DNA of 64,000 nucleotides from Candidatus Omnitrophota bacterium (GTDB lineage: Bacteria; Omnitrophota; Gorgyraeia; Duberdicusellales; 4484-171): assembly GCA_028692655.1 (NCBI GenBank), contig JAQUWY010000005.1:3789-67788 (forward strand). The letters are read 5' to 3'. Position 1 is the first letter of the stretch. Every line of letters starts with the position of its first letter. Below are positions 1 through 43,254 of the stretch, piece by piece. Made by a program: the position numbers and the translations under genes. The notes under the pieces were generated by a model that searched no databases, was not told the origin of the DNA, and was given only the letters and a program-made list of their open reading frames with translations.

Positions 1-3000
1 TGAATCAGCCTCCAGCGAACAGGTAAGTGCCAGTTAATGAAATCTTCCATTACTTTTAATCCGATATCAAAAGCATCTTTATCACCTTCATAATTTCTTC
101 TATATTTTCTCCTGTATTCATTGATTACTTTTTGCTGTGCTTTTTCATTAGTCAACAAATCTAAACTGTCAACAAAAAGCCCCCTAATATCATCAGCGAT
201 TTCCTCAGATACCGCCATTAAGCTATGGTATTTACTTATTAAAGAATCAAAATCAGCTGTTCTTTCTGTTTTCTTTAATCTCAAGGTAATCAACTCTCTT
301 GATAATTGCCTTAATTTCTTCTTTTTGCTGTTATTAAGCTTAGCCTCTATTTCTTCTAATCTCTGCCTATAAGCGGGTGTTTCTCCCCGTTTTAAGCCAA
401 AAATAAACTTCCTGAAATCATCAAATCGTTCAGCTTCAGCTTCTTCTAATTTGTCCTTAATCAATTCTACCAAGTTTTGAATATGAATCGGATAGCGCTT
501 AGCCACATAATGGAAATTAGTATCTCTGTTGAATTCGCCCTGGTTTTCATCTTTGATCAAGCTAAGTGACTCAGCCATTGTGAAATAATAAGGGTTAATA
601 CCTCCGGCTGAGTGGAATTGAGTTCTGCTTAATTTTCGCTCAAAGCCTTCTAAGGCCGGTTTATTTCTAAAGTAATCTCTCATCCAGTCTAAAATTTCTT
701 TACGTACTCTTTTATCTTTAGGCTTAGGAATTCTTAGAGAGTGACGCTTGTTAATAACCTTTTCAAATTTATTATATTCAGCTACACTCATATATCCTTT
801 TTCAAGGCCCTCGCGCCGTAAATTCTCTAAGAATTCATCTTTATAAGTTATTCCTAAAGGATTTTTTCTCAAGGCATTAGGCTCCTCAGCTTTATCGTCA
901 TATAATATTACCCTTAAAGTTTTAGCTAATTCGCGCCCGCCTGAGCCACTCCATCTAAAAAACCAGCTATTTTTAAATCTTCTTCCGTGTTTTTCCTCTA
1001 ATTGATCTTTTCCCACTTTGTGAGAAATAATGCTGCCTATTATATCTCGGAACGAAAACCAAGTTAAAGGAAGCAATAATAACCAAACTATTCCGCCAAT
1101 AACAGCTGTTCCTAAAGCCATCGGTATACCGAATACTGTTAACTTCAAATAAGCAAGATAGATTATCGTCGCCAATAGAAGGGTGTTATAAAGAACCATG
1201 GCTACGTTTATTGTTCTCCAGGCAGCCTGGCCTCTTCTAGTCTGCAGGTCTCCGATAGTAGCCGGCGCACTTGTCGCACTTGAAGATTCTGAAGAAGCTA
1301 TGCGCTTTTTATCTAAAAACTTGTAAGCAGCAAAGCTTATGGCTACTGCCGCTAAGGCAGCTACCAGGCCATAAGCCAAATAACCAACTACACTAATGAT
1401 AATAAGCGGAGCGATTATAGATAATTTATCTCTTAATATCGGCTGCACTATTAAGCTATTGATAGTATTCCTTAAAAGCCTTATAAATGATTTCCAGCCA
1501 GTTCTCCAAATAACATATTCACCTTCATTTGTTCTTACTTTCCTGTCAGAGACTTCTTTCATGACTTTGGCTATTGCCAGCTTATCATTCTTGCTGCCTT
1601 CCATCTCTCCCCGGACTTCTTTAATCCTCTTTAAAAATGTTTTGATATCTACTGTATCTAAATCAAGAACGGTGCGCTCTTCTTTGGTTTCAGGGCCGGA
1701 AAGAAAGCCTAGTTCCGTAAATGGCTCTTCTACATACCTGAATAAATCATCGATATCTTCCTGCTGAAGCACATCTGATATACTTCTGTTTCCAAATGGC
1801 TTGATATTCTTAGCCCTAAATTCATCGTGTTCATTGGCTTCAAACTGGATAAGAGCCATAATGATAAATGCTAAATCACTTACAAAGCTATCCATTGCTT
1901 TAGCCGCTTCTTCAATCACTTTTCTCTGGTCTTCAGTTTTATCGGCTCTCTTCTTAGCCAGCTCAACCTGATAATGCCAACGTATAAGCTCGGTCATCTT
2001 AAAGGCATAACGTATAACCGGTGAACGGCTCATAAGCATTCCTAGGCCTTTGCTGGCGCTCCAAGTCTGGCCATATATTTTTTCAAATACTAAGTATCTT
2101 AGACCATAACGATATGGATTTTCAAAGCTCTTATCTTTACCAATCCATTCTTCTGAAGCTGCATTATTAATCTCATCTTGCTCAATAATTCTCCAATCAT
2201 CAATACGTACTTCTATAGTCTCATCCTTTTCTTTTCGCTTAATAGTATCTTGATATGGCACGATATGATATGGATGGATAAGAAGCTTGTTAGTGAACAT
2301 ATCAAAGATGTGATGCTTCATCATAATGGTTAAATCCGGCAAGCGGTCTCTTATTGCTTTTATCGAGTCATATTCTTTGATATATCTGTCAATTATCGGC
2401 TCAAATTTCTTCTCAACTATTTTTAAAGGAATCAAGAAATTAAGAGCGTTCATCTGGGCATCCATGTTAGAAGCAAGCAGCTCTTCAACTATTTTCCCAA
2501 GCTCATCTAAAGTAATCCAGCCTTCTTCTAAGGCTCTCATTACTAAGTCATATACTGCCGGCGCATAAGCACCTGAAGACATATGCGGCAATAAAGGTAC
2601 TTTTTTACTATTAACAACAACAGTAGCAACAGCAACAGCATCTTTAAATACCTTTATATCTGTATCTGGTTTTTTTATTAATTTTAACAATAAATTTAAT
2701 CTTGCTTTCCCGTTTTCTACTCTCTTGACTAACCACTCGCCTTTGTCATCTTCCACTGAGCTGCTTTCAAATGTAATTTTATTGGTATTAATACCTGCTT
2801 TATTAACATCATCTATATCCAAAAATCCTTTCTCTCTTCTCAAGGCTTTTATTTTATCTGCCTGGCCGCGGCCTAAGGCATCTACCAGCTCTCTATCAGA
2901 AGCTCTGTTGATATTCAGTTTTCCGGCTGCGCCCCTTATAGCTCCGTCTTTAACTCTTCCAATAGCAAAAGCATGCCTTAACATTCTTACTATTAAAATA

Positions 3001-6000
3001 ACGAAAGAGGCAAGAAAAACAATAATCGGCCAATAAGCCTTGCCTGTAATTTTAATTTCAGTTACTCGTCTCTGCCACCAAGAGCTATTATCTTTTTCAG
3101 AAGTTGTAGAATCTTCGACTAATATTTTATTGCCAAGAGCGATATTTCCATTTTCTGCGATAGCTATGCTTATACCTTGATCATCTCTTAAAATCTCAGG
3201 GCTATAATCAACTCCCGCGGCATCTTCAAAACTCCTTAATGGTATACCGAATACACCATTTCTAATTTTGTCATGATATAGCCACCAGATGAATCCAGGG
3301 GTTTGCTCAGGCTTGGCAATACCTCCAAAATCTTCTTCCTGGCTCCACTCTCTTCTCTGCCATACCAGGTCGCCATATTGATAGATACTAACTGTAATTT
3401 TTTCTTCAGGAAGTAATGCCTGCACTCCGCTATCAACACTAAAATCTACATATCTGGCGAATAAAGCAAAAGTGCTGTCATCGAACTTGATCTTAAAAGT
3501 TTGCATATAAGGCTGTGAATTTTCTGCGTTACCAATAAGGCTTTGAGCTACTTGATATACATCAGATGAAACTTCATCTTTTAAAACCGAATAAGGAAAT
3601 CCTGTAGCATTGATCATAGCCACCTGCCATTTAGGTGTTTGAGCATCACTGTGAAAAACAACATTGGCATAAGGCCTTCCGTCTAAATGAAGGATATAAC
3701 CTCTAGTTCCTTCAAAATGTGTTCTGTGTTCATCAGATTGATAAACCAAATAATTTCCAATAAAGCGCAAGCCATTAGTTTCAGCTGCTACTGTATTGCC
3801 TTCATAGTCCTCAAATTTTTCATTACCAGCTATGTATTCATAAGTCGAACTTCCTTTAGCAATTCCCAAGTGAGTAGTCCCAATTTCCTGACGCGGTAAG
3901 CCAGAACCATTTCCGTTGTCACCGTTTGTCAAATCAAAGAAAGTAATATACTCTGGATCACCTTGGCCGAATCCATCCTCGCCTATACCCTTAAACCTAG
4001 ATTTAGTAACTACTAGATGGCCCAAATTATCATTTGCCTCTTGTCTTGTGAATAAAGAGTAGAAGCGTAATTGATCTGCCTCAATTATATTAGTGGTAGA
4101 AAGTGCTCTGGCCAAAGTTTTAAGTTCATCATATGTATAATCTGCTGATATAAAGTTAGCTGTTCCGTCATCATCTATTCTAAGCAGTATTCCTTCTTTA
4201 GTTGTATGTTTAACAGTTCCTTGATCATCTACTCCGGTGGTCTTAGTAACGCCATACAAGCTTTCATTGTCCTGGCCATCTGCGTCCTGGCCATTTGCAA
4301 TTGTAGTTATAGTTAAATCAGGTATGCCATATGTAGAGTATCCGTCGCCAAAGAACTGATAAGTTTTCATCCCGCCAACAGGAACATTGCCTTTATCATC
4401 TACACCCCACATACCCAATAATCTTCCTTGCTCATTCCTTAGCTCTTGTTTATCTTGGCTGATCACCCTGTATTCACCGGTAACGCCGTCTTTACCTAAA
4501 AACTCATCATGTCTCTGAGAAAGAATTCTCATTTTTCCCTCAGCTATTTCAAGAGTGCTTAACCAAGACCTGCTCATAGCACCGGTATTATCATTTAATA
4601 ATTCAGTTTCAATATCCGAAAACTCAACAATTTCTAATTTTTTGTTATCTTTTTCACTTTCTTTATAATAATTTCCGTTACCATCGGCAAAATATGCCTG
4701 ATCAGCATTGTTTGTAGAAAGAATTCGTAAGTAAACATTTAATTCTTCTATTTCTTCTTTATTTTCTTTATAGTAGATTACATTACCGTCAGCTATATAT
4801 AAATAAAACTTCTGCAAGCGATAAGTGCGAGCTGAAGTAGATATTTCTAAACGGCCAAGCTGAACTTCGCTATGAGACTCAAACGTATTTGCTTCAAATT
4901 CTTCAACTGTCTCTCTGATGAATCCTTTGTTGAATTCATCAAGTATCTTTTCATCTCTTGCCGGCCTTAACCTTTTTATAATACCAAGGAGCTTATCTTT
5001 AGTATCATTTTTAGTCTCGCCTTTATACATATCGTGATGGCCTTTGTAGATCTGCTCTAATATTCCGTAACGGCTTCTTACTTCTCCAAAGAACTTGTTA
5101 TTATATACATCGAAGATCAAGGCTTCCTCGTCAGTTATAAATATACCTACTGATAAGATCTCATTCTTTGGCTTGCCTTCTTCATAAACATGGTCAATAC
5201 TACCGATTTTATTATTATCATCATCATAAATTATAAAACGGATTCTTCCTAAATCCTCATTAATCTGGGCTAATTCTCTTCCGGTAGCCTCATCAAATAC
5301 TGATTTCCAATATTTTATAGCCTCTTCACCTTGCAAAGCGGTGATAGTGTATGTTAAATAAGGTTTTCCTAAATCTTCTGTTAGCTTTCCGTATAACTCT
5401 TTTTCTTGTTTCTCTAACCACTCTTTTAATTTTTCAATTTCTTCTTGATCAGCGTCTGTTCCTTCTACCGCCTTGAATATACGCTTGGCCTCAGTTTCAT
5501 CCCATTCATCTCTTTCATCTTCATCCCATTCAAAAGTCTCTCTAGCCGGAACAGCGCCTGCCTCATTAATCTTATTGATAATACCTTCTTCAATACTGTA
5601 GCGCATAACCCCGTCTGCATTAAAAACTTCATCCCGTACTGTCTTCCCAGTTTGAGGGTCAATGGTCTGATTACGAACTAATTGCTCTGTTGAATTTTCA
5701 AGGTAATTAGCCTCACTAGTCTTTACCCAATAAACAACATTTGCTGTACTTAAATCAGAAGTAACATTTACTTGTTTTCTATCTCTATCCCGCAAAGTAA
5801 TTGCCCTAGTTTTTGTATCTAGCTCATAGTAAAAGATTGCTTCAGGATTTTTTAGTGTTTCTTCACCAACCTTAACTTCAAAATCTTCATCTGAAAGCTT
5901 CTTAATAACAGCGAGCCCGTCGAACCCTGTACTCCTATCAGCCAATAATCTACCTGAAATCATAGAATTTTTGATATGAAGCTCACTGGAAACTAATTCA

Positions 6001-9000
6001 TCTTCAACTTTTACCTCAAACCAAATCATGGTCTGGGTTCTGCCTTTGACGATTAGAGTAGTATCAGAAGGAATTAGATTGCTGGTGTCTCCGCTTAAGA
6101 TAGCTTGAGCTATAGCAACGAAGTTATTGTCATCAATGGCAACAGTTTTAATCTCTGTGTCGAATTCAGCTATGTTAAGTTTCCAGAGGTCGCTGAAAGC
6201 TACTTTATCATCGGCTACATATAGGATCTCTGGTTTGGCGCCTTTCTTAAATACGTGGATTTCGCTGGATTGTGAATCACCGCTTACGGTGTTATTGGCT
6301 TGATTGTATTGAGCGGCGTCAAACACTTCAAACCATACTGCTTTACTATCACCGGCAACATGGGTACCTCTAACTTTTAGAACCGCGGTTAGTGATTTGC
6401 TGGTATCAGCTTTTAGAGTTGTTGGGTTGATAGAGTAGATAGCAATGATATCACCTACGTTAGCATCGAAAATACCTGCTATCGGTAAGCTGTTATCAGT
6501 TACATATTCGATATCTCTTGAACCTTTAGTATGTATTTCACTTGACGCTAGAACACCGTTGATCTTTACGTCAAACCAGATCTTGGTTTGGGTTCTGCCT
6601 CTGACGGCTATGGTGGTGTTTGAAGCGGTTAAAGTATTTGCTTTACCGCTTAAGATAGCTTGAGCTATAGCAACAAAGTTAGCATTAGTAACTTGGGCGG
6701 TTGCTATTTCAGTGTTGAATTTATCTGGGTTAAGTTTCCAGAGGTCGCTGAAAGCTACTTTATCATCGGCTACATATAGGATCTCTGGTTTGGCGCCTTT
6801 CTTAAATACGTGGATTTCGCTGGATTGTGAATCACCGCTTACGGTGTTATTGGCTTGATTGTATTGAGCGGCGTCAAACACTTCAAACCATACTGCTTTA
6901 CTATCACCGGCAACATGGGTACCTCTAACTTTTAGAACCGCGGTAGAAGACCCGACAGTTTCTCTGCCGCGTACTTTTAATACTACTTTTCTTGCTTCAG
7001 CCTTATCCGGTAATAATGTGTGTGGATCGTTGGGATATATGGAAATAATCTCTTTGTTTGTATCCAGCAACTCTGAACCATAAAGATAAATTTTGCCATC
7101 TTCATCCTGATAACCATAATCGGTTATTGCTCCGTCGCTTCTGCGTAATACGTTTAGCTCGTCTCCGTTTACTAAAATAACTACCCGGCTCTTATCGGCA
7201 GCAACCACTTCTGTTTCAAGCGTTCCTTTTTCTTTTAAGGTTAACTCATCTAATATTGCTGATATTAAAGGTTTATCAATTTCGGATTTTTCTAAGTTCG
7301 ATTTCCACAATAACCATTTTCCTTCAACTCTTCCAACCGGATAAGCACCTTCTCCGTCAATAATCAACACATAATTATTATCTTCTGTAGCGAGTATTGC
7401 CCTGCCACTGTGCTTTTCAATAACCCTTGCCGGCTTACGGCCGTCTTTTTCAACCAACCTGCCGCCTTCTAGGGCATGTTCAACAGCAAATACATCTTCC
7501 CCTTCCTCAAAATCATCAAACTCCGGATAAAGCCAGATTTTTCCTTCTTTATCCACGTATCCATATTCAAGAGTTAAACCTTTAATCCCTTCAGCCCTGT
7601 CTCCAGAAATTACTTCTACTTCTCCGAAAACTTCTTTATCGCCCAAGGTAGCGCTGTTTACTGTTATAAGTACAACATTATCATTCAATAGTTTTTCTTT
7701 TCTCTGGTAATAATTAGTAGCTGTGCCTCTCTCAGCTAAATTTCCTTCCGAAGCAGCTGCTTCAAAGACAGCCTTAGTATAGCGCCTTACTTGATACCAA
7801 CCTGCCCAGGGACCTGTTTCAATTTTCTCAGTAGGCGCTAATATCGCCTGCATCTCTCCTTCGACATCTCTTTCCACATATCCAAAAGTTACATTTTCTT
7901 CAACAACCCAAAACTCAACATGGGGATGCGGCCTATTAGTTATTCTTTTAACTGCTACGGCATCATCCTGGTAAATAAATACATAATTCCCTATGCGAAC
8001 GGCCGAAGTTTCAATCAAGCCTCTCGCGTGGCTTTCTACCAGCCAATCTATGGTTTCGAACTTATTGTTGCCAAGGTGGTACCTGTCATCATCGCCCTGC
8101 ACAAAGTTTACTCTTTCTTCTATCTCAAGTAACAGAGGGCTTTCGAGGTCAAGCTTGGTAGGATTCATTATCTGCAGTTGATAAACTTTCCTGCCTTTTT
8201 CATTGATATCTCCCAACACTACGTAAGGCTTTCCGTCACTCCGTGTTCTCTGATCTTCAATCCAAAATCCCGCGTACCTGCCGTGAGAAAAATCGCGTTC
8301 TTGTAAAGCTTTAAGCGCGCCTTCTTCACTGTCAAACTCATAGACTTTACCCCCATCTAACCAGGAAGTGACTCTGTATTTACCATTTTTGTTATTAAGA
8401 TATATTTCACTTTCCGGAACACCGGATAAGCCTTTTACCCGGCCGCTATTAATTCTGTATTTTTCTATTTTTGTAGCACCGTCTTTGCTGATAAAAACAT
8501 ACCTATATTCCCCTTTGCTATCTTCAACAACACTGCTGCGCCATCCGGAATCCGTACCGCCTTCAAAATCAAGTTTGCCTAACCTCTCCTGAAATTCCTG
8601 CCAGCTCATCCGACGGACTATTCCGGAAACGCTGATTTTAACTTCGACTGGTTTAAAATAGCTATATGTCCTGCCAGACCGCCAGTAAACAGTCTTGGGG
8701 CCAAAAGCATAATCAAAATTAAGCCTCGCTACTAAAGCCCCATCTCCGTTAAAACTTTTATATTTATTTGACCTAACCTCAAAGATGCCCTTACCTTGGC
8801 TTCTTAAAATACGCATTGTATAAATCTGTCCGTAGATTTCTTGTTCGTAAGAGTAATCATATATTCCCGCTTGGGATTCAACCTTTCTTGCTTCCTTTCC
8901 TAAAACATCATCTATCTTGCGGTTAACCCGTGGGGTGTATCCGCAATAACACCAATTTGCCCAGTAATCAGAAATAATCCCTCCGTTGGATGCTATAACC

Positions 9001-12000
9001 TGAAATTTATACCTTTTGCCTTTTATAACCAGCCATACGCTGTCATCAGGCAACTGTTGGAAATTACCCTCAGCCAGGATAATTCCTCCCTTTTTATATT
9101 TATGGTAATTAAGCACTGCTTGGCGGCCATTTTGGGGCATACTGCTGTTATAAACAATCACAGCGCCTGAATAAGACAATTTTTCTACTTCTCTCCAATC
9201 ATCTACCCGGTTAATCGTGGTGAAAATCCGGGAAATTTTCTCATTTCCGCGAACTATTGCTCCAATAACATCATTCCAGTCAGGAATTCGCTTCATCGAG
9301 CTAAACTCCTCTTTCTTAACCTCGGTTTCGTCCCGATCCTCAATTTTTGTTTTATCCTTAATCTCTTCCTGAGCCCCAACCTTCTGTTTGTGGTCATCAG
9401 CACTAGCCCCTTTATTTTCAAGCGCCTCCGGCAAATTTTGGCGGTTGGCATTCGGTAAATTTTCAGCTTTCTTCTCTGCGTTTTCTCTTCTTTCCACCGG
9501 GCTCAATCTTGCCGCCCTATCAACAAAATCTCTAAATACTCCCAAGGCTTGTTTTGGAATTATTCTAATAACTTCATCCTCATAAATAGCTGGTACGCCG
9601 GGATTTTCCCCCTTCTTAACACGCCGATTCATTCCATAATCATTTTCATCCATATTGTCGGAAATCCAGGGTTTAAAAGGATTTGAGGTTAAATCGTATA
9701 TCTCATAACTCGCGATTTGTGTTGGTTTGCTATTGTTATCGATAAAACTGAATACGAATACAGCCTCGATCAAAGGATGCCTTCTCTGCCATAAACTATT
9801 TAAAATCTGTTTTAAGGTCGCGGCCTGCAGGTCTTCTCTTTGTTTGCCTTTAACTAAACTATCTACACCGATTTCACCGATTATCAGCCTACTTAGTCCG
9901 AATTCCTTAAGGCGCTCTATATCTTTAAAGAGCGACTGGTCAGCAACCTGCTTTAAGCCATAATAGTTTACTGCTATATTATGTATACCGTTTTCGGCCA
10001 TAACTCTCATCTGCTCATCAGTAGGCAATCCGGCAAACCCTACGAACACTCCTTTAAATTCTTTTCCTTGTTTTGCCAATACCTCTTTGAGCCTTTTAGA
10101 AACAACTCCTAATTGAGTTAAAGTATCTTGAGTAACTGCCGAATACAGTTTTAATAAGGCTTGGTCTTCAACAGTTAAGCTTTGAGGGTCATTCTTTTGT
10201 TTTTCTACCAGCATGCGGACGCGTTCAAGCGTTTCTATGCCGTACATCTCAGCAATTATTGCCCGGGAGTTGTTGTAAGCCTCTACTTCTTCTTGAGATA
10301 ACGGCTGATTCTTGGTTTTCTTCTCAATCGCGGTTTTAACTATCTCTCTTGTGGTTTCATCTGGAATATACCTTAAATCATTTTCATCTAAATCCCTGCT
10401 ATAAACACCTTCCTGGAACCAGGAAGCCCTGCTTATAATCTTAGCTGTCTGTTCATCTTTGCTTAAAGCCGATCTGGAATTTTTAGATAAAAATTCCAAT
10501 ATATTCTTTTTTTCGATTATTCCATAATCATTCAAAAGCGTTATGTATATTTTTTCTGTAATTTCCGGCGGTAACTGCGCCGCTATTTCGCTTATGTATT
10601 TTATAAATTCTTCGTTCCCGTCTCTAAATAAACCTATGTCGATGCCTATCCTCTTACGGTCAAAAGTATTACCTATAATAAAGTTAGGAATTACATTCCG
10701 GTGGACCAATTCTTTTATGGCTTGAGCGCTTTTCTCCACATTTATATTCCCCTGGCCGTCACTTACAATCGGAAATCCATCATAGAAGCTGGCTCCCACC
10801 CAATAACTGGAATCGCCTCTGGCGCTGTCTATCAACTTAAATGCTGCTTTCTTGCTTTGTTCATTTTCCCAGCTAACAGGCATATCAACGGAAGCACCAA
10901 AAAGGATTGAATCCCTTCTGGGCATAACCGTATTTGCGCTAAAGCTCTCTAACGCCGGCACAGGGCCTATATTATTATGGGATGTAACACCATCCTGAGC
11001 GTCATCATCCTGGCCGGCAAAAGGCATCTGGCCGGTTATACCCATATAAGTAACGCCTGTTATCACAGAACCGGCAAATACGGCTAAGCCTAAGCCTAAA
11101 GCAATCTTCTTCCAATTGACAGGCTTAGCTTTTGACACTCGCTTTTCATCCTTATTCTTAACCCGGTTAAAAACACTTAGCTCTATCTCATCTAACTTAT
11201 CAAGGGCTGACAATGCAATGGCTTTGTATTTATTAATTTTATCGGTAGCCTTCTCGCCATTTCTTTTCTGATATTTAAACCAGGCCAATCTCAATTTTGC
11301 CCCAGCATAACTGGAAACTGCCGACTCATACCCGTTTAACGCTTCGCGCACCTTAGCTTCATCAATGTCTCTGCCGCTTAAGGCTGTATTTATCAGGTAT
11401 TTGTATATATCTATGTTGCTATTTTCAATAGCTTCTTCTATTCTTTTTTCTAATTGGTTATCTTCCTCTCCCAGAAGCCTCCTTAAGGCTTCTTTAACCT
11501 GCCCTCTGACTTGGCAGGAAGATATTCCTTGATTTTTCACTGCCTCTGCTACCTGGGTAACCACAAAATCTTCCAATCCGCCGATTAAATTATCCGCGGC
11601 CTTATCAATACCCACTGCGGTTCCAATAACTTTAAGATACCGTTTCAGGGCGATTCCAAAAGCCTCTTCAATTTTTTCCCATAAAACAGCTTTGTCATTA
11701 CCCTCCAGCCAATCTGAATACCCTGACTCGATAAATTTCTGATTGTCTGTTAGAATTTCTATAGTTTCTTCTTCGGTTTCTTTTGACTCAACAACTGAAA
11801 CCGGTTCAACGCCATCAGGTTTGCTATCCACGGGTTTTTCTACTTCTGTTTTTCTTCCTGCATCCGGCTCACCTTGCGGGACAACTTCAACAGGCTCTTT
11901 CTCTCTCCGGTCAAAAACACTTATCCATAACAATAAAGCAATTACCGGAGCGGCAAAAGTAAATAAAACCAGGTATCCTGCAGGTATAGAAAATATGAAG

Positions 12001-15000
12001 TAGCCTAATGCCCAAGCCAAGCCTAAAAATCCTGCGCCAGCATAAACAGATTTAGGTATATGTATATATGTCCACTCTTCTTTGGGTTCAACATTTTCTT
12101 CAGTGCTAAGCGCCTCGGCCATTGAGGCTTTAGTCTTTTCATCTTGAGTCGACGGTTTAGCATCGGCAGACGGCTCTTCCTCAGCAGCCAGCGGTGCCTG
12201 AACAGAAGGCTCAACAGATGGTTCTTCTTTACCCTTCCCTTCCGGTTTCCCAACTTCTTCTCTGTCTTTTTCCTCATCCATCGTCCCTCGTCTTTCGTCC
12301 TTCGGCCTTGCTGTTTCTGTCTTCTCTTGTCCCTTTGTGCCAACGGGTTGAGAAGTTTGTTTTTTCATCTGCTCAACATATTCTCTAGTTCCAACAGTAT
12401 TGCGTATTTTCCTTTTAATTAACCCATATCCAAGAAAACTTAGGAGCAAAATCAAAATGGCATAAAAAGCGTTGTCGGAAATTTTCCATTCATTTCCATC
12501 TTCCAATGCGGATTTGGAATCTGGAGTACCTTCTGGAGCTGTTTTCGATTCCTCAGTCAAAGGCCCTGCAACCGGCACCTCTTTGATGGGTTTCTCTTTG
12601 GTAGATGGCTCTTTCTCAGCAACCGGAGCTTGCTTGGCTGGTTTCTCTTCAGCTGGCGCTTTCTCCATGGTAGGCTTCTCCTCAACAGGAGGAATTACTG
12701 CGGGTTTCTCTTTAGCAGGCGGCGTGGGTTTCTTAACTTCAGGTTTAGACTCAATCTTTTCCAGCCCCTCCGGTCGTTTTTCTTCCTCTGGGGTTATTTC
12801 TGGCTCAACTGGCTCTGGCACTGGTATCACTTCTGGTGTTGGTTCTGCCTTAATTATTTCTGCGGCGGCCTTTTCTTGAGAAACTTCTACTAATACTGTT
12901 TGTTGGCGCCAGCGGTATCCTCCAAATATCAATCTGCGTATCGGCCCGCGGCGGCGCTCACAAACCCACCTATTTTCATATCTATATGACTGAGTATCTA
13001 CCTGCTGGCTTTGAGTGTGTTTGATTGGATCGAAAGTTTGATCAGCATAGCCATTAGAGTATGCTATTGGTTGAGCATAGGCCTGATACACCTGACAGCA
13101 ACAAGTCCTCCGCGGCCCAAAGCGCCTGAATAACCCGCGAGCTTCGGCATTTGTCGGTGCTATTACAGTCAAGCTTGTAATAAAAATCCCTAAACCTACT
13201 ATAATTTTACGTAACCACGATGCCTGTCGCAATCTCTGCAGAAGTCTTGTTCTTGCGGTTTGTGATTTTAGGACCTCAACTTTATTATCAGTTGCAAAAG
13301 AGGCCCCCTTGGGGGTTGGGGAGGCATGGGAGCCTCTCGCAACTTCATTATTATTAATTTTTATAGGATTTTGCTCATGAGTTTTGTCAGGATTAAGCAC
13401 CGCCCAGATTTCGTGGGCAAGGTCGCGGAAAGATACTTTGCTTTGAGAAAGGATTATGTGATTGGTTTTATTTCTATAGTAATTTGCAATTCCTAAATTC
13501 CAGGCCGGAGGCGCTCGAATTACTTTGATGTTTCCCAAAATTAAACTTATGAATAATCTTAAGGAATCTGCTACCCCCAAATATCTCAACGCCGGTAAAG
13601 CCATTACTATTGATGAAAGCTTTCTTTCTCTTGGAAAATTTTCTAAACCTATAGTTTGAACCTTTCTATTTATTTCTTCTCTAGAAGTCCCTTGGCTTGA
13701 AGCATCAAGCGGAAAAGATTCCGCTATTAAAAGCTCTGCCGCTTGCTTAAATTCTTTCACAAAAAATTCAATGTCTCTGCGAAAAGAACCGTTAGCTGCT
13801 GCAGGCACACTGGACAACATATTCTCAAAAATATCCCAATTGACAACTGTTCCTGATTCCTTAAGCAGGCCAATGTATGGCTTAAAAAGAAAACCCACTA
13901 ATTCAGAAATACTAGTTTCTCTATGGCTTGAGCCGTCATCTACTAAAACGAATTGGCCGGAATTTTCTTCTATCCTTAAATTACCGGCATTATAATCCGT
14001 TGGGGATTTACCTTCTAACAAAACATAGATAAGCCCTGCTGTAAAAAGAGCTTTTTGAGCATATTCCCTTTTCTTTTCCTTGTTTGTTTCAACCAAAATT
14101 AATAAATCAAAATCCTCTCCTTCTATATATTCCTCTGACATCATATGAATAATTATTTTCTCTTCCTCAAAAAGGCCAAGCGGTACCGTTACTTTAAGCA
14201 ATGAACCAACCCTTGGAACTGCTCGAACACTATCAGGAACACCGAACTCGCTTTTTCTTTGGTGAATCCTACTCATTCCTTCAAATTCCGGCCCTAATGT
14301 ATCTGTTAAGATCTTAGGAACTTTTAGTATAAATTCATAAGCTTTCCCGTGCACACCAGTTTTTTCCGAAAACATTGCCACTCTTACGCCATACACAAGC
14401 CGGGTTGTACCGTTAAACCCGCCTTCTACATTAAACAACGTTATTCTTTCAACATTCTCTATATTTATAACATCACCATGAATATCCCGGATGGAGTCTT
14501 CAATAAAATCGCCAATAGAATTCAAGTTAGAAGGCATCCTTAACCAATTTGCGATAAACTTAACTCTGCTGATATAGTGGTCACTAAGCAACTCTTGGAT
14601 AAATGCTTTTACTACAGGGTTGCTTCTCTGTCTAAGCTCTACCTGTAGAGCATCCACTTGCTCATGGTTTAAGCCGCCTAAAGCAGCAATAATTTCATGC
14701 TCTATCTCATCAAAGGAAGCTCTTTCCCGCAGATATACTATATTAAGAAGGTTGAATGAAGGTTCATCAAACCCTGGCGGCCCGCGACGAATAATGATAT
14801 CATCTAAAAGCTTAGCTTTATCTAAAGAAAGATTTTCCTGCAAGAATATAATTTTGTTTTGTACATTCCTAGAGAACTCATCGTCTATCGCATCATAAGG
14901 CTGCCAGCCTCCTAATCTTTGGCCAAGTGAAAGCCTGGCTTGTATAATTGTTAAATCTGCGTTATCAGAAGCATGATCATGCGGAAAAGATTTAATTCCT

Positions 15001-18000
15001 TTATGGATACTGGCAACAGGCAAAACAAAAGTAAAAGTCGTTCCGGGTGTGGTACGGACTCCTGAACTTATCATTTTCAGCGTCTGCATCATAGCCGGAA
15101 GCGCTAATACGGCTTCTTTGACTTCTTTTATCTGTTCGATATCGCTGAATTGGTGGGTTAGAGCGGCATACGCTACTCTTTCACCCCAGACATAACTCCC
15201 TGTATTCTGAGTTACATTGTATAATAACCGATGATTTGCCCCTAACACATCCAGTATATATCCCTGTACAACATTTACTGCCTTCCCAATGGCGCTTTTA
15301 TCGCCTTGGATTCCTTCTGCCGGATTTCGCGTAAAACGTTCTCTCATTAATTTTTCTAAAACACCTAAAATAATAACCATATCGATGGCTTCATAATAAT
15401 AGTCTTCAGCAGTATATCCAATAACACCAGGCTGATGATAAGGATCTCCCAAGGCTGCTCTTGATACACTGTCTATACGGTTAGCCCATCTTTTTGTTTC
15501 TTCTTCTAAAGTTACATACAATTCTCCTATATATTTACGCAAAACATACCCAACCTCAGGCTCACCAAGCATTGGCAATTCTTCAATTATGCCTTCAGTG
15601 AGCGAATCTATTTCAATCATTACTTCGGGCACCCGATAACTTTCAGCTAAACCAAGCCCCCTTGATTCACCTTTGCCTGAAATTCCCAAAACGAGCATTG
15701 CCTGGCGCCCGTCATACCCCGCCGGGATTAAAAGCTTCGCGGGTAAACCTTTTAAGTTGTCGGTGATAGCAATTCTAAGTTTTCCATTTCTGTCTATAGA
15801 CATACTGGCTTTGATTACAAGTTCATTAAGCTGTTTATTAGCTTCAGCCTCATCATAAGCGTTTCTTAAAACATTGGAAACAGCGTTCTCCAAAGCTATT
15901 GGATCAACTCGAATTAAATAATCTTCATTCAGTTTTTTATGGACTGCCAAATTAGCAGGACGCCCTATACGCGCCATGACCCAAGCGTTTTTGATAATTC
16001 TAATTACTTCTCTTATATTGACAAGCTGCGTTGTATCCTGGCCGGTAAAATGCCCATATCTATTATTCAAAATTCTTAAAACATCTTCAAAACCTTCCAG
16101 GGTTTCTTGGTACAAAACTTTAAATTGCCGGTTTGCCGTTAACCTCTTTGCTAATTCAGAAAATTTATTCTTCGCTTGAGTGATCGCTTTTATTATCCTG
16201 TTAAACTCTTCTTTCCATTCATCAACCTGAACTCTGCTTACAGGCTCACCCGGTATTATCGCCTCTTTAATTTGATTATGCAGTATTCTTAAAGCTCCTC
16301 GGCCGGCATATCCATTTTTAGCAAGAACGTTCTTTATCCGCTTTAATTCCGGTAATAAATCCCTAAGCTTGGTACGCCTGCCTAACTCTTCTATGCTATC
16401 AGTAATTACTCCAATCTTTTCGGCATTAAACAGCGCTATTACAATTTCGGTTGCCGCGCTATGTTCAAGGCTTCTTATAGCATAAGCGATTCTTTCCGCT
16501 TCTTTATCTGTAACCTTATCGCCGTCGGCCGCTGTATCTTTAACCTGCCCGCCTAATCGCTCAAGGAGCTCGCGGACAGAACTTTTATAACCGGTTATCC
16601 AACGCGCGGCCAACACATATAACCCAGAAGAACTTAGCCAGTCTTGCAATTCTTTAACTTGGCTATGCTCTAAACCGCCTATAAAAGCCAAAAGCTCGTG
16701 GCGAATAATCCATTCTTTTGTTTTTAAAAGCCACTGGTCCCTTAATTTTTGCTGGTAATACCACTTGGTATTATTAAACAAATTGGAATCAAAATACAAA
16801 GCGGTTGGATTTCCATAATTGTCAATACGCATGCAAGCGCCGCATTCAAGTCCGTCCACCTCAAATATCCAGCCCTCTCTTAACAATTGCGATAACTCCT
16901 CTTTCTTCTTCTCTGCAAGCGCTATTGCCTTAGCCATTTCTGGCGTAATATTCCCCACTGGCGTACCAATTTTGAGAACTAATCCTATTAATTCATCTAA
17001 TAAAGCATCGTAATTGCCTATTAATATTTCTGCTTGAGAACTGCCAAAGCGAATCTTTCGTGGCCCTTTATATTTGTTCAATAATGCTTCTATTTCTTCT
17101 TTTGCTCTCCCGTCAGCTGAAGAATCTTTGGCTGACTGTGTTAAACCAGCCTGCTTAAATAATATTCTCCTGGTAAAATCAAGCAACATTGTTAAAACAG
17201 GTATAATAAACCACAGCGGATTAAGTAAAAGGCTATTGGCCATCATCCAAATAATAATAACTGCCGCAGATATAGCTATTGATAAAGAATGGTTATTATT
17301 TTTTTCTACATTCGGATAGCTCAAAGGAGAAGCGTAAGGATTTATTTCTTCCGGTTGTTTTTCCTCCCTTCCTTCTTGTCCTCTCTTATTTACCTGTGCC
17401 CGCAAAATCCTATATGCCAAATAGCCTAAGCCTAAAACCACCACAGCAGCTATTATATAAGATAAGGCGGTTACCAAAGCCCCAGCAGATGCTCCAGTCA
17501 TACCCGCCTCTCCGGCAAAAGCAGTATTAGCTGCACTAACAACACCTAAGCCAAAAAAGACAGATGCTGTTCGTCCCAGAACACTTTCCACAACGGGGCC
17601 TGCTGTCTTCAGAGATTCATTTAATTCCACCTGACTAATTTTAGGTATCCGGTCTAAATCCCTACGGTTTTTTATGCTTCTTTTTATAAGTTCTCTGGCA
17701 GCATAGTCCGGCTGGCCGCTAACAAAAGGCAGTATCCCTTCAAACCCTTGACGGATAGGAACAAGATTCCAGTTATCCGGCTGTGTTAAGGCAACAACAG
17801 CAGCCAGCTCCTCAATGGTTAAAACTTCAACTATTCCTTCGCTAATACGCCCGCGCTTTTCTTCTATAGCCTTAATTTCGGCCATAGCTTTTGACTTATC
17901 ATCATTGGCTTCATCTGTAAATATTCTTTTAAATAATTCTTCCCTTTGCTTTTCTTCTTCGGCACCGGCCTGTAGCTTTCCTATTATTACTATGGCTTCG

Positions 18001-21000
18001 GCTATTTTTTTTATTTCTTCTAACAACTTTGTACTTTCTGATTTTATCCGCAATACCTCTCTTTTTCTATTGTTAAACGCAGCCGAAAGCCTTGGGTTAA
18101 GATTCAAATCTATATTATTGGAAATATTACTTAATATTTCTTCCGCATCAGAAATCTGCTCAATCACATCTTGCAGCATGCCTTGTAGAAGCTCTAAATA
18201 CTCCTTTGCATCATTTATATAACCTTTAGGTTTTGTTTTTCCAAATTCTCTTAGTAACTTACCCATTTCTCTCTTTGCAATCTCGGTTTGGCCCTCAACA
18301 TTGCCAAGAACACTATTAACCATATTTACCAATGCTTGAAAATCTTTCTCAGCCCGTTTTCTTTTATCTATTTGATCAATTCCTTCTTGTTTCTTCCTAA
18401 TGGACGCAATTACTCTTTTCTGCCCTTCATCGCTCAGACTTTCTGCCTTATGCATTATCTCAAATAATAAACGCTGCGCGGAAGCCTCAGCCGCGTTAAC
18501 AGCCTCAACTTCTTTTATAAGATTATTTACCGCTTCTTCTTCGCGGTCATTTACGTTTCCTTCAGCCTCAAAATTATCTCCTGAACCTGGCCGGCTTGCG
18601 TCAAGTTGTCTTGCTGCTATTTTTCTTCTTATATCCTCGCGTTTTCTTATAGCTTCAGCTAATTCTCCCCTGGCTTTTAGCAGGCTTCTTTCTCTTTCTT
18701 CCTGCAATTCTTTATACCCTTCTAATCTTTCATACTCCATCTCTCTGCTCTTTACTTCTAATATGAGCAAACGCGTTTTTACTCTGCTTATTTCTTTTTC
18801 AGCCGCAAAAACCTCCTCTTTTATGCTGTTTTCTTCCCGAAGTTTTTTTAGTTCCTTCTCGGCCTCCCGTAATCCGATCGTTTCTTTTGTAAACTTTCCA
18901 TCTAACTGAATTTTTTGAGGCATTTTGTTAGGCTCTAAATTTGCAAGTGCTATTGCATACCGGTTTATTATTTCTTCTAATTCGGCAATTCTTTTTGCGT
19001 TCTGGCTTTTTGCTTTTTCAATTCTACTCAGTAACTCTTTCTTAAAAGTTTTCTGTTTATTCACAATTTCAGCAATTTGTGTAAGAGTAGTTATTTGCAA
19101 TAAAGAAATTTCCCTTTCGATTTTCTCGATAAACTCTGGATTGCGTGCCCTTGCATTTTCTAATCGTTTACGCGCGCTAATTCTTGTACGGTTTTTAACT
19201 TCTAAAGCGTCCTTGCCTCTATATTTCAAAGCTTCTTTAATCCTGCCAAGGCCTTTACGTAATCTTCTTATCTGATGCCGCAATTCCCAAATTGTCTGAT
19301 TTATTTTATCCTTTTCCTCAATAAGTTCGGACAAAGTGCTTTCTTTATTTGGCTCAGATGCCGGATTCAAAGCAACAATATCTTTTTCCAACTTTGATAT
19401 CCTGGCTTCACTTTCCTTAAGCTCTTTGCGCATACTAGCCAATTTTTCCTTAACCTTCATTAACTCCCTAGCTAACTGTGTTTCTTTATAGTTTACGTTC
19501 TGCGCTTGCTCTGCGTTCTCTATATCCCCATATACTCTTTCTAATTCTTCTTCTAAATCTTTGATTAACTTTTCAAGACGCGCTTTCTCTTCATTTTCAG
19601 GCTTTAGCTTATCTTTTAACTTAGCAATTATCTCTTCAGGCGTTTCGTTTGATGGCTTTGCCGGAAGAAATGCTTCTTCTTTAGCTTTATCAGCTTTTTC
19701 AGGTTTTTTAGTTGGCTCGTTATCGTCTGATTTTTCTTCCGGCGGCGCTTGCGGTTTTTTAGGCTGTTTGGGGCTTTCTTTTGAAGCTTTAAAATCCCTA
19801 TTTCTTAAATAACTCCTTAACCAGGTTGCAGCAAGACCGAGAATGAATCCGGTAACAAACCCGCCAAAAAATGCAACAACATTAACTGTAGTAATATAAG
19901 CTGTTATACCGCCTACAATACCGGAAAAAGATGCCATAGGTGTGGTTGAATTTGAAGAATTTCTATTTTGACGTGATTTTTTTACTCTTAAGCCGGTAAA
20001 CATACCAGCCAATAGCCCAAGGATTGTGCCGATAATAAATGCAATCCATGGGTAATTTTTACCGGCAAGTTCTCGTTCAGCCTGTTTAGCTTTGATTAAA
20101 TTTTCTGCGGTTTCTTTTGTCTTCTCTGCCTTTATCTTTAGCTCATCTACAGCATCGGCAAAATTTCTTGCCGCCTCAGCGGTTTCTCTTGCCTGTCTGG
20201 CCATTTCTTCTGTGGCGCTCTTAATTTTCTGCCATTTATTTAAATCAGCTATTGCATCAGTAAGGTCTTGATTATATCTTTCTAAATCAGATTTTGCTTT
20301 CTCAATCTGGGCCTTTAACCCAGCAGCCCGTTTTGCCTTAACATTCTTATAGTTAGGATTATTAATTACCTGTTTTTTGCCTTGTCCTGAGCAATTGCAG
20401 GAGTCGCAAGGAACTGCGTTAATGGTTATTGATTTTATATTTTCCGGTAAAAACCTTAACCGAGCTTTTAATCTCTGTGATACCCGGCCAGGATGTGGAC
20501 TTTCGTAACGACGGATATTTGCCTTTACATTATCAATACTTATAGTGACCCTCAAGTAGCCTTGCCCCTCTCTTTTATCTTTCTCATTTATCGGCCTATT
20601 TAATTCTATTCTTGCTTCATTTTCTAACATTCCACTATAATCCTGCACTAAAATATCATAATATCCCGGGTTACCACCCTTAATAATCCTATCCACTTCA
20701 TTATCTGCACTGTCATAAGGATTGGGTGATTTTATAATAGTGTTGTACGACGGCAAAGCATAGAGGGTGTTGTCGTCCTTACCCGCTTGAGTAAGATTAC
20801 TCTTAAGCGTTTGTAATAGTGCTTCTGTTTTGCCTATTGATTCTTTTACTCTATCAACTCTGGCCTGAATAGCATCAACCTTAGCCTGTACCGCTTCAAC
20901 TAATTTATCAAACTTATCAGCAACTTTATCAAGCCTGTCAGCAACCATGCGCGCTTCAGTTGCTGTTACACCCAATTTTTTAATAATATCTTCTATCGCC

Positions 21001-24000
21001 TTAATTTTTGCGCGGACATCATCCTCGGCATTTTGCGAATCAACTGATGGCGTTGCCATTAACTTATCAACCGCTGCTTGCAATTGGTTTATTGCTTCAT
21101 TAGCTTTTTCAGATAACTTAACTGCTTCGTCTGCATTTACCTCTGCTTCTTTGGCTAAATTCTCGGCTTCAATTAGCGATACTTTAGTTTGTTCTACCTT
21201 TTCTTTGCCGGGAACTTCCCTTTCTTGTTGCTGGGCAAGCCTTTCATTGAGGCTAGTTTTATCTTTAACTAATTGGGCTTTTTTGCGGCTTAATTCTGCT
21301 ATTTGCGTTTTTATTTTTCTTATTTGTGATTGAATATGTTCAACTTTTTTAGTACCGCCTACGGATTCGGCCTGTACATATTCATAACGCTGCGTTGCAG
21401 CATTTCTTAATCCGGGAAAGATTGCTCCTTTTCCTCGTGAAGCCCTTCCCCTCGACCATCTAGCAAGCAAACCGTTGCGGACATATCCACCGTCAATAAC
21501 AACCTCTTTTTCTTCCGTCTCTTGAGCTTTTCTTAAACTTTCCTGTAACCTATCTAATCTTCCCTGCAGTTCCGATATTTTCGCAATTATCTCTTGTTGG
21601 CCTTCGTCCAAATCGCCCAATTTTTCTTTCAGTACTTCTGTTCCATTTTGCGCATCCTTCAAACTATTGTTTAAAAGCTCTTCTTCTCCCTTTAATTCCT
21701 CTACCCTATTCTTAAATTTTTCTGCTTCTGTAGCATAGATTTCGGCTTTCGTTTCCACATTATCAACTGCTTCATCCAAACCTTGTAAAGCTCTTTTTAG
21801 GTCTTCTTCTGCGGTTTTTACATCTATTATCGGTTTATTATCACTTTTAGACACTGATGGCTGGTGACGGGTAGCTGGTGTGAGTTTTTTATCTTCGGAA
21901 ATCTGCTTGTCCCGTGACAAAGTTTTTGCGGGTTGTGCGCTTTTTTCAGCAGCTGGTAATTTTTTCGCTGGCGGACCTATCGCAGGCGGTAACTTAATCT
22001 GAGGAGAAATGATAGGCCCTTGCTGAGTAGGTAATTCCAACGATTTTGATGATGTCGGCATAGCCGGCGCTATTGGCCCTTTATCTATCCCTGGCATTAC
22101 CGGTTTTACTTTTAACTCCGTAGATGTTTGAGCTGGTTTCGTTGGCTCTGCTTCAGGTTGTACTGGTTTAGTTTTAGCTACAGGTGGTTTTGGCTGAGTA
22201 GTTTTCGGGGCGGCCGGCCTCGCTACCGATGCTGGGACTGCGGCTTTCGCTTCTTTAGTTGCAGCTTTTCTAGCAGCCAATCTTTCTTCTTTGGCTTCTT
22301 TAGCCAATCTTGCCTTCTCAACGAGAGCTTCTTGGGCAGCTTTTTCTGCGTCCACTCTTTCTTGTTGGAGCCTTGCTGCTTCAGCTTGTCTGGCTGCTTC
22401 TTCTACGCGGGCTTTTGCGACAGCTTTCATTGCTTCGGCTTGAACAGCCTTTGCAGTAGAAACCGCCTCTTCTAAAGAATCGAATGAATGCTTGCCGGTT
22501 TTGTATTCATAGCCTATATAGATACTTATACTCGGGCCGGCACTAGTGGCTCTTGTTTCAGCCATAACTCTGGCCTGTTCTCTTTCTGCCTGACCCATAT
22601 TTAAGAACTCTTTGCCGCCGACACTGTAAGTAGCTTTTCTTTCTACTTTGATTCCTAAACCAGGATGTTGTGTGTCCACCCTTTCTTGCTCTTTCCGTAA
22701 AGCATCTGCGATTTTCTGTCTTTTCTGCTCAATTCTCTCTAGGGCTTTTTTGATTGTCTCTTTTATTTTATCTTTTACTTGGTGGCTAACTCTTTCATCG
22801 GTTTTGAAACTATTAATAATTTGTACTGCGCCATCAAAATTTTCATGGTCAACCGCCAAACTCAACGCTTCTTCCCAGCGGCTTTGCAATTGTTCCTGAG
22901 CTTTCCGGTCTGTTTCTGCTTGCTTTTCAGCATCTATTTTGCCTCTTAGCTTTAAGCCTCTGGCCGTTGAACCTTCTTTAGATTTAACCGGCTGTGTATT
23001 TTCACCAACCTCTAGTTTAACTGCCACCTCAAAGCTTTTGTTACGAGTTTTTTCTGGTTTGCTAACCATTACTTTTTTATTCCTAAGTTTAATTAAAGAA
23101 TTACCAATAGTCCCGGCTATTTGATCTTTATTTCTTTCTCCTACCATCGTAAGCTCAGGTTTGTTTTGGCCATCTACAACAACTGCAATATAAGGAATAC
23201 TTTCAACTCCATAACGCTGAATGACAGAAAGGTTACTTTCTTTATCTGCATCAACCCTAACCAAAAACACTTCACCCGGATAATCAGCAACAACTGCTTC
23301 AAGTTCAGGAGCAGTTTCTCTGCAAGGACCACACCACGATGCCCAAAAGTCTATTAAAATTACTCTTCCCTTTCCTTCTGCTCTGAGAAATTTATTCAGG
23401 GTAGTTAAACCTTCAGCATTAACAATATTGCTGCTTACCCCATCTATTCCGGAAATATCGTCAGCGGCTTGGCCAATATTAGTCAAAACCGGCGAAGCAA
23501 GTATCAGCGCTCCAAACAAACCAAGCACAACAGCTTTAAACACCGGACGGGCGGCAAGCCTTCCAAATACAGTAGAAGGGGTATATTTTTCTTCTTTTTC
23601 TTCGCTCAAGCCAAAATCCGAATGAATTTTCTCTTTCCCTCCTTCAGTAGTTGATGACAATACCCTCTTAGACCATGCCATATATTCAAAATCATCCGGT
23701 TGTTGTTCTTCTTCAACCTGTCCTGTGGCTTCCCCTTTTATTGTTTCTCGAATAGTGCTCCAATTTAGGTCAGATTTCCTTCTTTCTACCTCGGGCTTCT
23801 GCGCTTTAACAGCTTTGCTTATCAGCCAAATGGCCGTAACGGCCGCTAAAATAATTAAGGCCAATTTTGCCCACAAAGGCATTGTGGCCACAGCTACCGG
23901 TTTTGCCGCCCCCATTAAAAATGGTGTGATCCCTGTTAACATCAACGCCGAAATTTTGCTATGGACTGCTTGTCCTGAGCGAAGTCGAAGGATGGACTGT

Positions 24001-42828: not shown

Positions 42829-43158
42829 TTAGTCGAATTGACCCCGCTCTTTTGGCGGAAGTCCTATAGTTAAACTGTGCTCCAAACGCCGTTTTAAATG
42901 ACCAATCGCGCTTCCATGATGTTTTAACTTATTTTCACGTTTGACCGCATCGCGTTTATCTAAGTAAGCCTCGTAATAAATCAATGTAAGCGGCCGGCGA
43001 TCCTTAGTAGAAGCAACTTTCCCTTTATTATGGGCTTTTATACGTGTTTCAATACTTTCGGTATCTCCCACATATATTTTTTTGTCTGTCTGGCTTTTAA
43101 GTATATACAAATAATGCATTGTATCTGCTCCGCCAAAAGGGCGGGGTTTTTCGGCCAT
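42829..43158 (-). CDS. GIY-YIG nuclease-superfamily small protein (109 aa).
   Basis: MAEKPRPFGGADTMHYLYILKSQTDKKIYVGDTESIETRIKAHNKGK...RENKLKH carries the GIY ... YIG ... R ... E ... N pattern. Confidence 0.8.
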   Translation of the reverse strand: MAEKPRPFGGADTMHYLYILKSQTDKKIYVGDTESIETRIKAHNKGKVASTKDRRPLTLIYYEAYLDKRDAVKRENKLKHHGSAIGHLKRRLEHSLTIGLPPKERGQFD

Positions 43159-43159
43159 A

Positions 43160-43215: not shown

Positions 43216-43254
43216 CTTTTCTTGTTTAACTTATACGCAAATCTTCACAAATTA

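Follow-up and report, generated by a model that had tools for sequence, protein, structure and literature searches.

A GC-rich palindromic repeat in translated spacers of a giant Omnitrophota reading frame, tentatively read as a maintained hairpin

A giant open reading frame (ORF) on the minus strand of a 64,000-nt stretch of DNA from a Candidatus Omnitrophota bacterium (assembly GCA_028692655.1, contig JAQUWY010000005.1; the whole stretch is referred to as the window) carries two copies of a short GC-rich palindromic element, both of which are translated as part of the giant frame. We tentatively favour the view that the element is a lineage-specific repeat lying in translated spacers of the giant ORF and maintained as a nucleic-acid hairpin, the Gly/Ser/Ala/Pro peptide that it encodes being incidental, though we would stop short of calling this probable. 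The question on which the case bears is how giant genes grow, how they are transcribed and translated, and how many products they yield. The minus strand of the window is the sense strand of the giant ORF, and sense and antisense are used in this way throughout.

The two copies had been placed by the initial annotation at about 13291-13345 and 24438-24496, both in frame in the giant ORF. The sequence bears this out, with copy 1 beginning at 13290 and with a frame that is open over 14,257 codons. The copies lie on the same strand and are identical at 48 of the 56 aligned positions (86%), with one 3-nt indel between them. Translated in the giant frame, copy 1 reads EVARGSHASPTPKGASFAT (codons 9810-9828, covering 13290-13346) and copy 2 reads KVAGGSHASPQTPTGASSAT (codons 6093-6112, covering 24438-24497). 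The peptide motif that had been described is exact in copy 1, while copy 2 carries one extra residue, so that both are written as GSHASP(Q)TP(K/T)GAS; the residues are small or flexible (Gly, Ser, Ala, Pro, Thr), without Cys or Trp. With a GC content of 61-66% the element stands out from the giant gene at 41%. It is stop-free in five or six of its six frames and, because it is open in nearly all of them, the shared frame and orientation of the two copies has a chance of about 1/6 and carries little weight on its own.

A chance similarity of the two copies was ruled out, since patterns made from the halves of the element, with three mismatches allowed, match the window at these two sites only and the 28-nt right part alone gives an E value of 7e-4 with blastn-short. 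No third copy was found in the 64 kb with nhmmer run under --max, with all heuristics off. The sequences flanking copy 1 are unrelated to those flanking copy 2, which also rules out a paralogous protein repeat.

The inverted arms of the element (AGTTGCA..GAGGC and GCCTC..GCAACT) pair over 17 bp, and the inverted-repeat symmetry noticed at the outset is confirmed by RNAalifold, which predicts for both copies a sense-strand hairpin of 17 pairs closed by a C-rich loop of 22-25 nt. The predicted sense folds have energies of -27.6 kcal/mol (z -4.3) for copy 1 and -31.8 kcal/mol (z -6.0) for copy 2, and none of 200 shuffled sequences was as stable. Among 70-nt windows of the sense strand of the giant ORF copy 2 is the most stable and copy 1 about the fourth; the further stable windows have weak and unremarkable z-scores. 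Between the copies one pair has changed in a compensatory manner, from A-U to G-C, through a non-synonymous Arg/Gly change on one arm and a synonymous Ser change on the other. A U·G pair is conserved and copy 1 has a G·U pair in addition; on the opposite strand, or if the DNA formed a cruciform, these positions would be mismatched. The antisense strand can adopt a Y-shaped fold of similar energy, with z-scores of -2.0 and -2.8 and without the compensatory pair. Of the options that the initial annotation had left open, it is an RNA structure within the mRNA that the comparative data favour, through the synonymous conservation described below, the compensatory pair and the G·U pairs that exist in the sense strand only.

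The hairpin is not a canonical terminator of the sense strand, as it lacks a U-tract; on that strand the terminator scanner was negative at both copies and the loop, at 22-25 nt, likewise led us to reject this assignment. The genuine terminators of the same window have 8-9 consecutive U residues. Searching the window with Rfam at the gathering threshold gave a cyclic di-GMP (c-di-GMP) riboswitch of class I, which lies elsewhere, and nothing at the element; permissive Rfam scans over both copies gave sub-threshold chance matches, the best with 20 bits against a threshold of 50. A G-quadruplex was also rejected, there being three G-runs only, on the template strand, and the hairpin being far stronger. 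Elsewhere in the giant ORF there is a 90-nt imperfect palindrome (15026-15115, plus strand), which folds strongly in the antisense direction only (-33.1 kcal/mol, z -4.4).

A scan of a genome collection with the right half of the element gave matches on two contigs only, both from a single Candidatus Omnitrophota metagenome-assembled genome (MAG), JBAYNQ01. Copies were searched for in the 64-kb window and in three contigs of this relative, in which only the orthologous copies are present, and all comparative and evolutionary tests use this one pair of genomes. The ortholog of copy 1 lies in MAG locus L006, which is 92.7% identical to the window over 2.6 kb and stops 87 nt past the element; that of copy 2 lies in locus L005, for which the full 10.8-kb contig is L010. 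The giant frame is open in every MAG ortholog despite many indels. With a word-index protein search around copy 1 this MAG was the sole true homolog, and an exhaustive search by HMMER with the 1,200 aa that surround copy 2 gave one true ortholog, the remaining matches being to the thioredoxin domain only. As both protein searches lead to a single homologous MAG, the gene is limited to a very narrow lineage.

Over the 56 nt of copy 1 a single base, a synonymous one, separates it from its ortholog in L006, and two bases separate copy 2 from that in L005/L010. The bases that distinguish the copies from each other, namely AAA or CTG at the bulge, the TGG indel and TC or CT, are kept by each copy in both genomes; the copies must therefore have diverged before the two genomes split and have not been homogenised since. 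Taking both copies together, 4 of 117 nt have changed within the element as compared to 236 of 924 in the flanks of ±120 codons (Fisher test, 7e-10). The peptide is kept at 19/19 and 19/20 residues between the orthologs, and the 4-fold sites are also conserved, 1/29 having changed in the element and 18/82 in the flanks (p = 0.016, pooled). For copy 1 taken alone the figures are 0/14 and 13/31 (p = 0.003). Across the gene 16.5% of 4-fold sites have changed, and the element is low against that rate too (P = 0.036). This favours a constraint on the nucleotides over one on the peptide, with the qualification that the sample is small and that mosaic recombination could contribute. The conservation of the peptide is most readily taken as a consequence of that of the DNA.

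Both copies lie in fast-changing parts of the gene that are its most divergent and rich in indels, and where the protein is probably disordered. The window and the MAG diverge in a mosaic pattern, stretches of 94-100% amino-acid identity being broken by patches of 14-66%, which suggests recombination or local relaxation within the giant gene. Copy 1, together with about 20 nt, forms a conserved island inside one such patch, where about 48% of 4-fold sites have changed although the remaining 2.2 kb of the 2.6-kb contig is 95% identical. The linker that contains copy 1 is predicted to be coil or disordered, with a predicted local distance difference test score (pLDDT) of 40 in the AlphaFold (AF2) model, and 26 codons after the element there begins a hydrophobic segment that may be a signal peptide or may resemble a transmembrane (TM) segment.

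Of all the patches in the 3.5 kaa open to comparison, the one that holds copy 2 is the largest and the richest in indels. Along the direction of transcription a Ser-rich hypervariable stretch is followed by the hairpin, with a heptamer array on each side of it, and then by AAAGGAGG and an embedded ORF of 82 aa; beyond this come CGCAGATT repeats, more variable sequence and a conserved block that starts at a transmembrane helix. The two heptamer arrays, which are in frame, are the only ones in the 42.7-kb ORF and both flank copy 2. The units of the array at 24497-24532 have changed in concert, from TCGTATA in the window to TCGTATT in the MAG, and a 15-nt direct repeat, TATTTCGTATGTCGT, which is found on both sides of copy 2 and is part of the arrays, is absent in the MAG. 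In the MAG the patch has heptamer arrays at L010 9803-9838, 10074-10111 and 10383-10459, further ones with other units among them. Over the whole patch the giant frame has no stops in either genome (294 codons in the window, 313 in the MAG), whereas the other two frames have 10-26; this indicates that reading through the patch has been selected for, and it rules out an arrangement of two separate giant genes with a spacer that is open by chance.

The 82-aa ORF is read in another frame than the giant ORF. Read in the mRNA sense, its ATG follows copy 2 at a distance of 53 nt and has a Shine-Dalgarno sequence, AAAGGAGG, 7 nt ahead of it, while the counterpart in the MAG (93 aa, L010 10068-10349, plus strand) has its own GGAGG in front. 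When the frames were compared over 228 ungapped nt between the window and the MAG, the frame of the small ORF gave a ratio of non-synonymous to synonymous substitution rates (dN/dS) of 0.16 with 80% amino-acid identity and no stops. The giant frame over the same bases gave 1.11 with 64% identity, without a stop in either genome, and the third frame has 65% identity and 9-11 stops. Judged from these substitution patterns, the small ORF is under purifying selection while the giant frame there is neutral, yet open, and the region appears to be a genuine dual-coding segment. Nowhere else in a 13-kb alignment does an open alternative frame coincide with neutral evolution of the giant frame. The single-sequence AF2 model of the 82-aa protein has a pLDDT of 69, compared with the 40 of the giant-frame linker that holds copy 1. 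Searches for a family or fold to which the protein belongs gave none, and Foldseek against the PDB gave nothing significant.

The favoured explanation can be put as follows. The element would have spread, by insertion or by ectopic copying, to segments that place little demand on the amino-acid sequence, and would have survived there because it adds a multiple of three bases, has no stop codon and encodes small flexible residues. Its present maintenance would be due to selection on the nucleic-acid hairpin and not on the peptide. That a hairpin is now maintained is suggested by the nucleotide conservation, the compensatory pair, the sense-strand G·U pairs and the position at module boundaries. 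Most likely it serves as an mRNA stem-loop of the intercistronic type where modules of a very long transcript meet, and there it might act as a barrier to 3'-exonucleases, as a processing site or as a place at which RNA polymerase or ribosomes pause. In the case of copy 2 the boundary would be that just upstream of the small gene, which is under selection of its own and has a separate ribosome-binding site. If the hairpins are functional they would give a first handle on the internal signals of giant transcripts.

Several observations weigh against this explanation. The 4-fold test for copy 2 alone is not significant (p = 0.59), the covariation consists of a single compensatory pair, and both conservation and covariation rest on two genomes and very few independent events. 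As the divergence along the gene is mosaic, the conserved island may reflect recombination history and not selection. There is no evident embedded ORF beside copy 1 to match the one at copy 2. Finally, signs of mobility, whether an unambiguous target-site duplication, an empty site, a parent element or an extra copy, were found in nothing that was searched. The proposal of a miniature insertion element in the initial annotation agrees with the data as far as the unrelated flanks, high GC, inverted arms and insertion-tolerant hypervariable spacers are concerned, but a clear target-site duplication, a parent element and further copies were not found.

It may also be that the element is a selfish or neutral passenger, a palindrome of the type of the miniature transposable elements with inverted repeats (MITEs) or of the Rickettsia palindromic elements (RPEs) that has landed in frame in an unconstrained linker, with its conservation an artefact of sampling or recombination. 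We consider this possible but doubtful. The unrelated flanks and foreign GC content would fit a passenger, as would the company that it keeps, since the same segments gather other junk-like DNA, such as heptamer arrays and an octamer repeat of intergenic type. Around copy 2 the giant frame is neutral (dN/dS 1.11), an in-frame copy is cheap for a sequence that is open in nearly all frames, copy 2 has the 15-nt direct repeat on either side in the window, and the Rickettsia elements offer a precedent (PMC10969869). A patch that has diverged by about 30% nevertheless predicts roughly 15-18 changes per copy where 1-2 are observed, and neither the synonymous sites of copy 1, all of which are unchanged against 13/31 changed in its flanks, nor the arm pairing preserved by a compensatory change would be expected of a passenger; there are no more copies in the window or in the contigs of the relative, and in the MAG the direct repeat at copy 2 is missing. 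Were the element selfish after all, in-frame palindromic repeats, which are best known from Rickettsia, would reach a new phylum and a much smaller element. A more ambitious proposal is that the hairpins are punctuation in a giant gene built like a stop-less operon, or else the cis sites of a nuclease-driven diversification of their flanks. In the former case the stem-loops would mark translated spacer junctions that yield sub-products, namely processed or stabilised segments of mRNA and the separately translated 82-aa protein after copy 2; in the latter the diversification would be programmed, and a riboswitch-controlled GIY-YIG gene adjoins the giant ORF. Either would be a new principle for the organisation and expression of bacterial genes above 40 kb, and we think the proposal unlikely.

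Somewhat less likely still is that the element acts as DNA, as a hotspot of recombination or instability at which an extruded hairpin or cruciform is cut by a structure-specific nuclease and gene conversion or slippage then creates the mosaic flanks, diversifying a giant surface protein. Both copies do lie inside the most divergent patches; the synonymous divergence of the copy 1 patch, at 48%, is what imported alleles would show; the only heptamer arrays of the 42.7-kb ORF abut copy 2 and evolve in concert; the MAG contig with copy 1 ends 87 nt past the element; and the giant ORF is immediately preceded by a gene for a GIY-YIG (UPF0213) nuclease, both being downstream of one c-di-GMP riboswitch. 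However, the causality may be the reverse, with insertions surviving only in unconstrained spacers, and there are divergent patches without the element (aa 3134-3200 and 4449-4546). The conservation of the palindrome itself is left unexplained by a hotspot alone, the G·U pairs favour pairing in RNA over pairing in DNA, and the link to the GIY-YIG gene is one of adjacency only. Selection on the peptide, with GSHASP(Q)TP(K/T)GAS serving as a linker, a protease-processing site or a recognition motif, would account for the near-identity of its residues between the orthologs, for the use of the same frame by both copies and perhaps for the place of copy 1, 26 residues before the signal- or TM-like segment. 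It would explain neither the palindromic symmetry of the DNA nor the conservation of synonymous sites (1/29 changed), nor why an R-to-G replacement is offset at the RNA level by a synonymous change, and a peptide search, which was itself uninformative, retrieved no homologous motif; we regard it as very improbable. The same holds for an action on the plus strand, where a double hairpin resembling a terminator might, for instance, halt antisense transcripts in the giant gene. The plus strand has its Y-shaped fold of similar energy, T-rich sequence follows and one small terminator-like hairpin was flagged on that strand at copy 2, but the shuffle z-scores (-2.0 and -2.8) are weak, the Y structure has no compensatory pairs, copy 1 was not flagged by the terminator scanner and the genuine terminators of the window have their 8-9 consecutive U.

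Features of the window that surround the palindromic element and the giant ORF
Feature	Position	Strand	Details
Palindromic element, copy 1	13290..13345	-	56 nt, 61% GC; bounds set by similarity
Palindromic element, copy 2	24438..24496	-	59 nt, 66% GC; bounds set by similarity
Divergent patch around copy 1	13154..13700	-	57-59% aa identity to the MAG
Candidate signal-peptide or TM-like segment	13157..13213	-	aa 9854-9872, LRKIIVGLGIFITSLTVIA, then PTNAEA; hydropathy scan
Hypervariable, indel-rich spacer patch with copy 2	23912..24790	-	giant-frame aa 5995-6288
Divergent patches of the giant frame	~33370-23912		aa 3134-3200, 3453-3500, 4449-4546, 5246-5295, 5995-6287
CGCAGATT octamer repeats	24062..24131	-	inside the giant ORF
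Embedded 82-aa ORF	24136..24384	-	other frame than the giant ORF
Heptamer array TCGTATG x4.6	24403..24434		opposite side of copy 2; absent from the MAG
Heptamer array TATATCG x5.1	24497..24532		abuts copy 2
Giant ORF, partial	1..42731	-	first ATG at 42731; runs past the left end of the window; >14,243 codons
GIY-YIG (UPF0213-like) nuclease gene, stand-alone	42829-43158	-	109 aa; immediately precedes the giant ORF
Canonical terminator with riboswitch	43151-43220	-	
c-di-GMP-I riboswitch	43198-43391	-	58 bits; Rfam gathering threshold

The element resembles several known classes of palindrome in kind, and is presumably unrelated to them in sequence. Rickettsia palindromic elements are palindromic repeats that lie in frame in protein genes, are translated and are kept at orthologous sites (PMC10969869). 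Our element is likewise in frame, translated and at orthologous sites in two genomes; unlike RPEs, which are about 100-150 bp long, number in the tens across many unrelated genes and are restricted to Rickettsia, it has 56-59 bp and occurs twice in one Omnitrophota giant ORF. The stem-loops of repetitive extragenic palindromic sequences (REPs) can stabilise upstream mRNA and modulate expression within operons. Roles of REPs are summarised in PMC3733652, where they are given as extragenic, high-copy sequences of 20-40 bp with GTAG or CGTC at one end. With REPs and bacterial interspersed mosaic elements (BIMEs) our element shares the character of a short GC-rich imperfect palindrome at the boundary of an expression unit, copy 2 being just upstream of a small gene led by a Shine-Dalgarno sequence, but it is longer at 56-59 bp, is translated, has two copies and ends in AGTTGCA and TGCAACT. 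No gene for a REP-associated tyrosine transposase (RAYT) was found in the window. As size, copy number, end tags and host all depart from the definitions of RPEs and REPs, the element falls outside both families.

Bacterial MITEs, among them intragenic ERIC, BOX and Anabaena MITEs, can fuse in frame with host ORFs (PMC10969869). The element has the terminal inverted arms and the small size of a MITE and lacks coding capacity for a transposase of its own; an unambiguous target-site duplication, a related insertion sequence and a multi-copy family could not be made out in the window and the three MAG contigs. When the sites were inspected for a target-site duplication, the repeat at copy 2, TATTTCGTATGTCGT, proved to belong to the heptamer arrays and the flanks of copy 1 to share AT-rich similarity only; neither an extra copy nor a transposase was found in the window or the three contigs of the relative. 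GC-rich hairpin inserts are also tolerated in the AT-rich ORFs of organelles, as with the GC clusters of yeast mitochondria, the double-hairpin elements of Allomyces and the 'byp' elements of Magnusiomyces. Like these the element is a short GC-rich, hairpin-forming insert in coding sequence; unlike these, which are multi-copy and sometimes bypassed by the ribosome, it is bacterial, stays open in frame without bypassing and has two copies. With Rho-independent terminators it has in common a GC-rich stem-loop, and differs from them in the lack of a sense-strand U-tract and the loop of 22-25 nt.

Other candidates were considered and set aside. DNA uptake sequences are motifs of 9-12 bp that occur roughly once per kb throughout a genome, and the suggestion of a DNA-uptake-like signal in the initial annotation was dropped, as the 64 kb hold no more than two copies of an element that is 56-59 bp long. 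In integron attC sites the outer sites are ordered 5'-RYYYAAC ... GTTRRRY-3', while either strand of the element runs 5'-GTTGCA ... GCAAC-3', and this reversed polarity rules out an attC site. A target of a diversity-generating retroelement (DGR) was ruled out as there is no reverse transcriptase domain in the scanned ORFs and the differences in the patch are mostly at third codon positions and include indels. A clustered regularly interspaced short palindromic repeat (CRISPR) was likewise considered and rejected. Wider searches added no relatives. A six-frame peptide search of an index of 5.8 billion proteins returned nothing, though it missed the known MAG protein too, and a word-index protein search with the region of copy 2 returned nothing although the ortholog P0002 exists. 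A two-arm pattern scan of metagenomes gave two chance hairpins and is a weak negative, as the known JGI contig Ga0172381_10007515, which the collection evidently does not contain, was not recovered. An exact look-up of the protein of a neighbouring gene gave no record. Viral scans gave chance GC hairpins only, and blastn against plasmids and phages gave chance matches or none.

The giant ORF itself is of a kind known from this phylum. Giant, poorly conserved ORFs adjoining pilus genes are a known trait of Omnitrophota, and ORFs of 20 to >100 kb are a hallmark of the group and nearly unannotated (PMC10066038); palindromes or hairpins within giant ORFs are mentioned neither there nor in a preprint of 2026 on the giant proteins of Omnitrophota. 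In the window the minus-strand frame runs from 42773 to 1 with no stops over its 14,257 codons and continues beyond the window, while the remaining two sense frames have 1,129 and 1,507 stops across the giant ORF. The frame thus runs, stop-free throughout, through spacers that look intergenic, with simple repeats, a conserved hairpin and a separately selected small gene. The only Pfam domains of the giant protein are a thioredoxin and HATPase_c, the thioredoxin fold (E = 3e-18) at giant-frame aa ~6470-6556 (window ~23100-23370) and the HATPase_c segment (E = 3e-6) at aa ~8957-9046 (window ~15630-15900); about 20 hydrophobic helix-like segments are predicted from a hydropathy scan. An in-frame internal duplication is also present (6151-6389 and 6706-6944; also 5965-6126 and 6520-6681), with a spacing of 555 nt (185 codons), and one 239-nt part of it is 97% identical between the copies, which suggests that the duplication is recent.

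The genes upstream of the giant ORF are components of a Tad pilus. Directly before it the order is c-di-GMP-I riboswitch and terminator, then the GIY-YIG gene, then the giant ORF, and as the riboswitch is directly upstream of the GIY-YIG gene with the giant ORF next, both are probably under the control of c-di-GMP. The CGCAGATT repeats near copy 2 have counterparts in this cluster: 44 nt of them (24088-24131) match parts of two intergenic leaders (48175-48218 and 50395-50438) at 93% identity. These leaders, in the pilus cluster, share a 233-nt repeat that is 88% identical (48096-48328 and 50316-50548), of which the CGCAGATT repeat that recurs near copy 2 is the 44-nt core; the repeat could be an array of regulator-binding sites or an unknown leader RNA. 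The intergenic segment 62343-62898 is packed with short tandem arrays with units of 7, 8, 10 and 14 nt, and simple-repeat arrays are therefore normal for the intergenic DNA of this genome. Lastly, periodic repeats of 54 nt (18 residues) at 48685-49141 and 63361-63991 are common to two genes of the upstream cluster, the ORFs 48368-49495 and 62917-63972, neither of which has a Pfam match.

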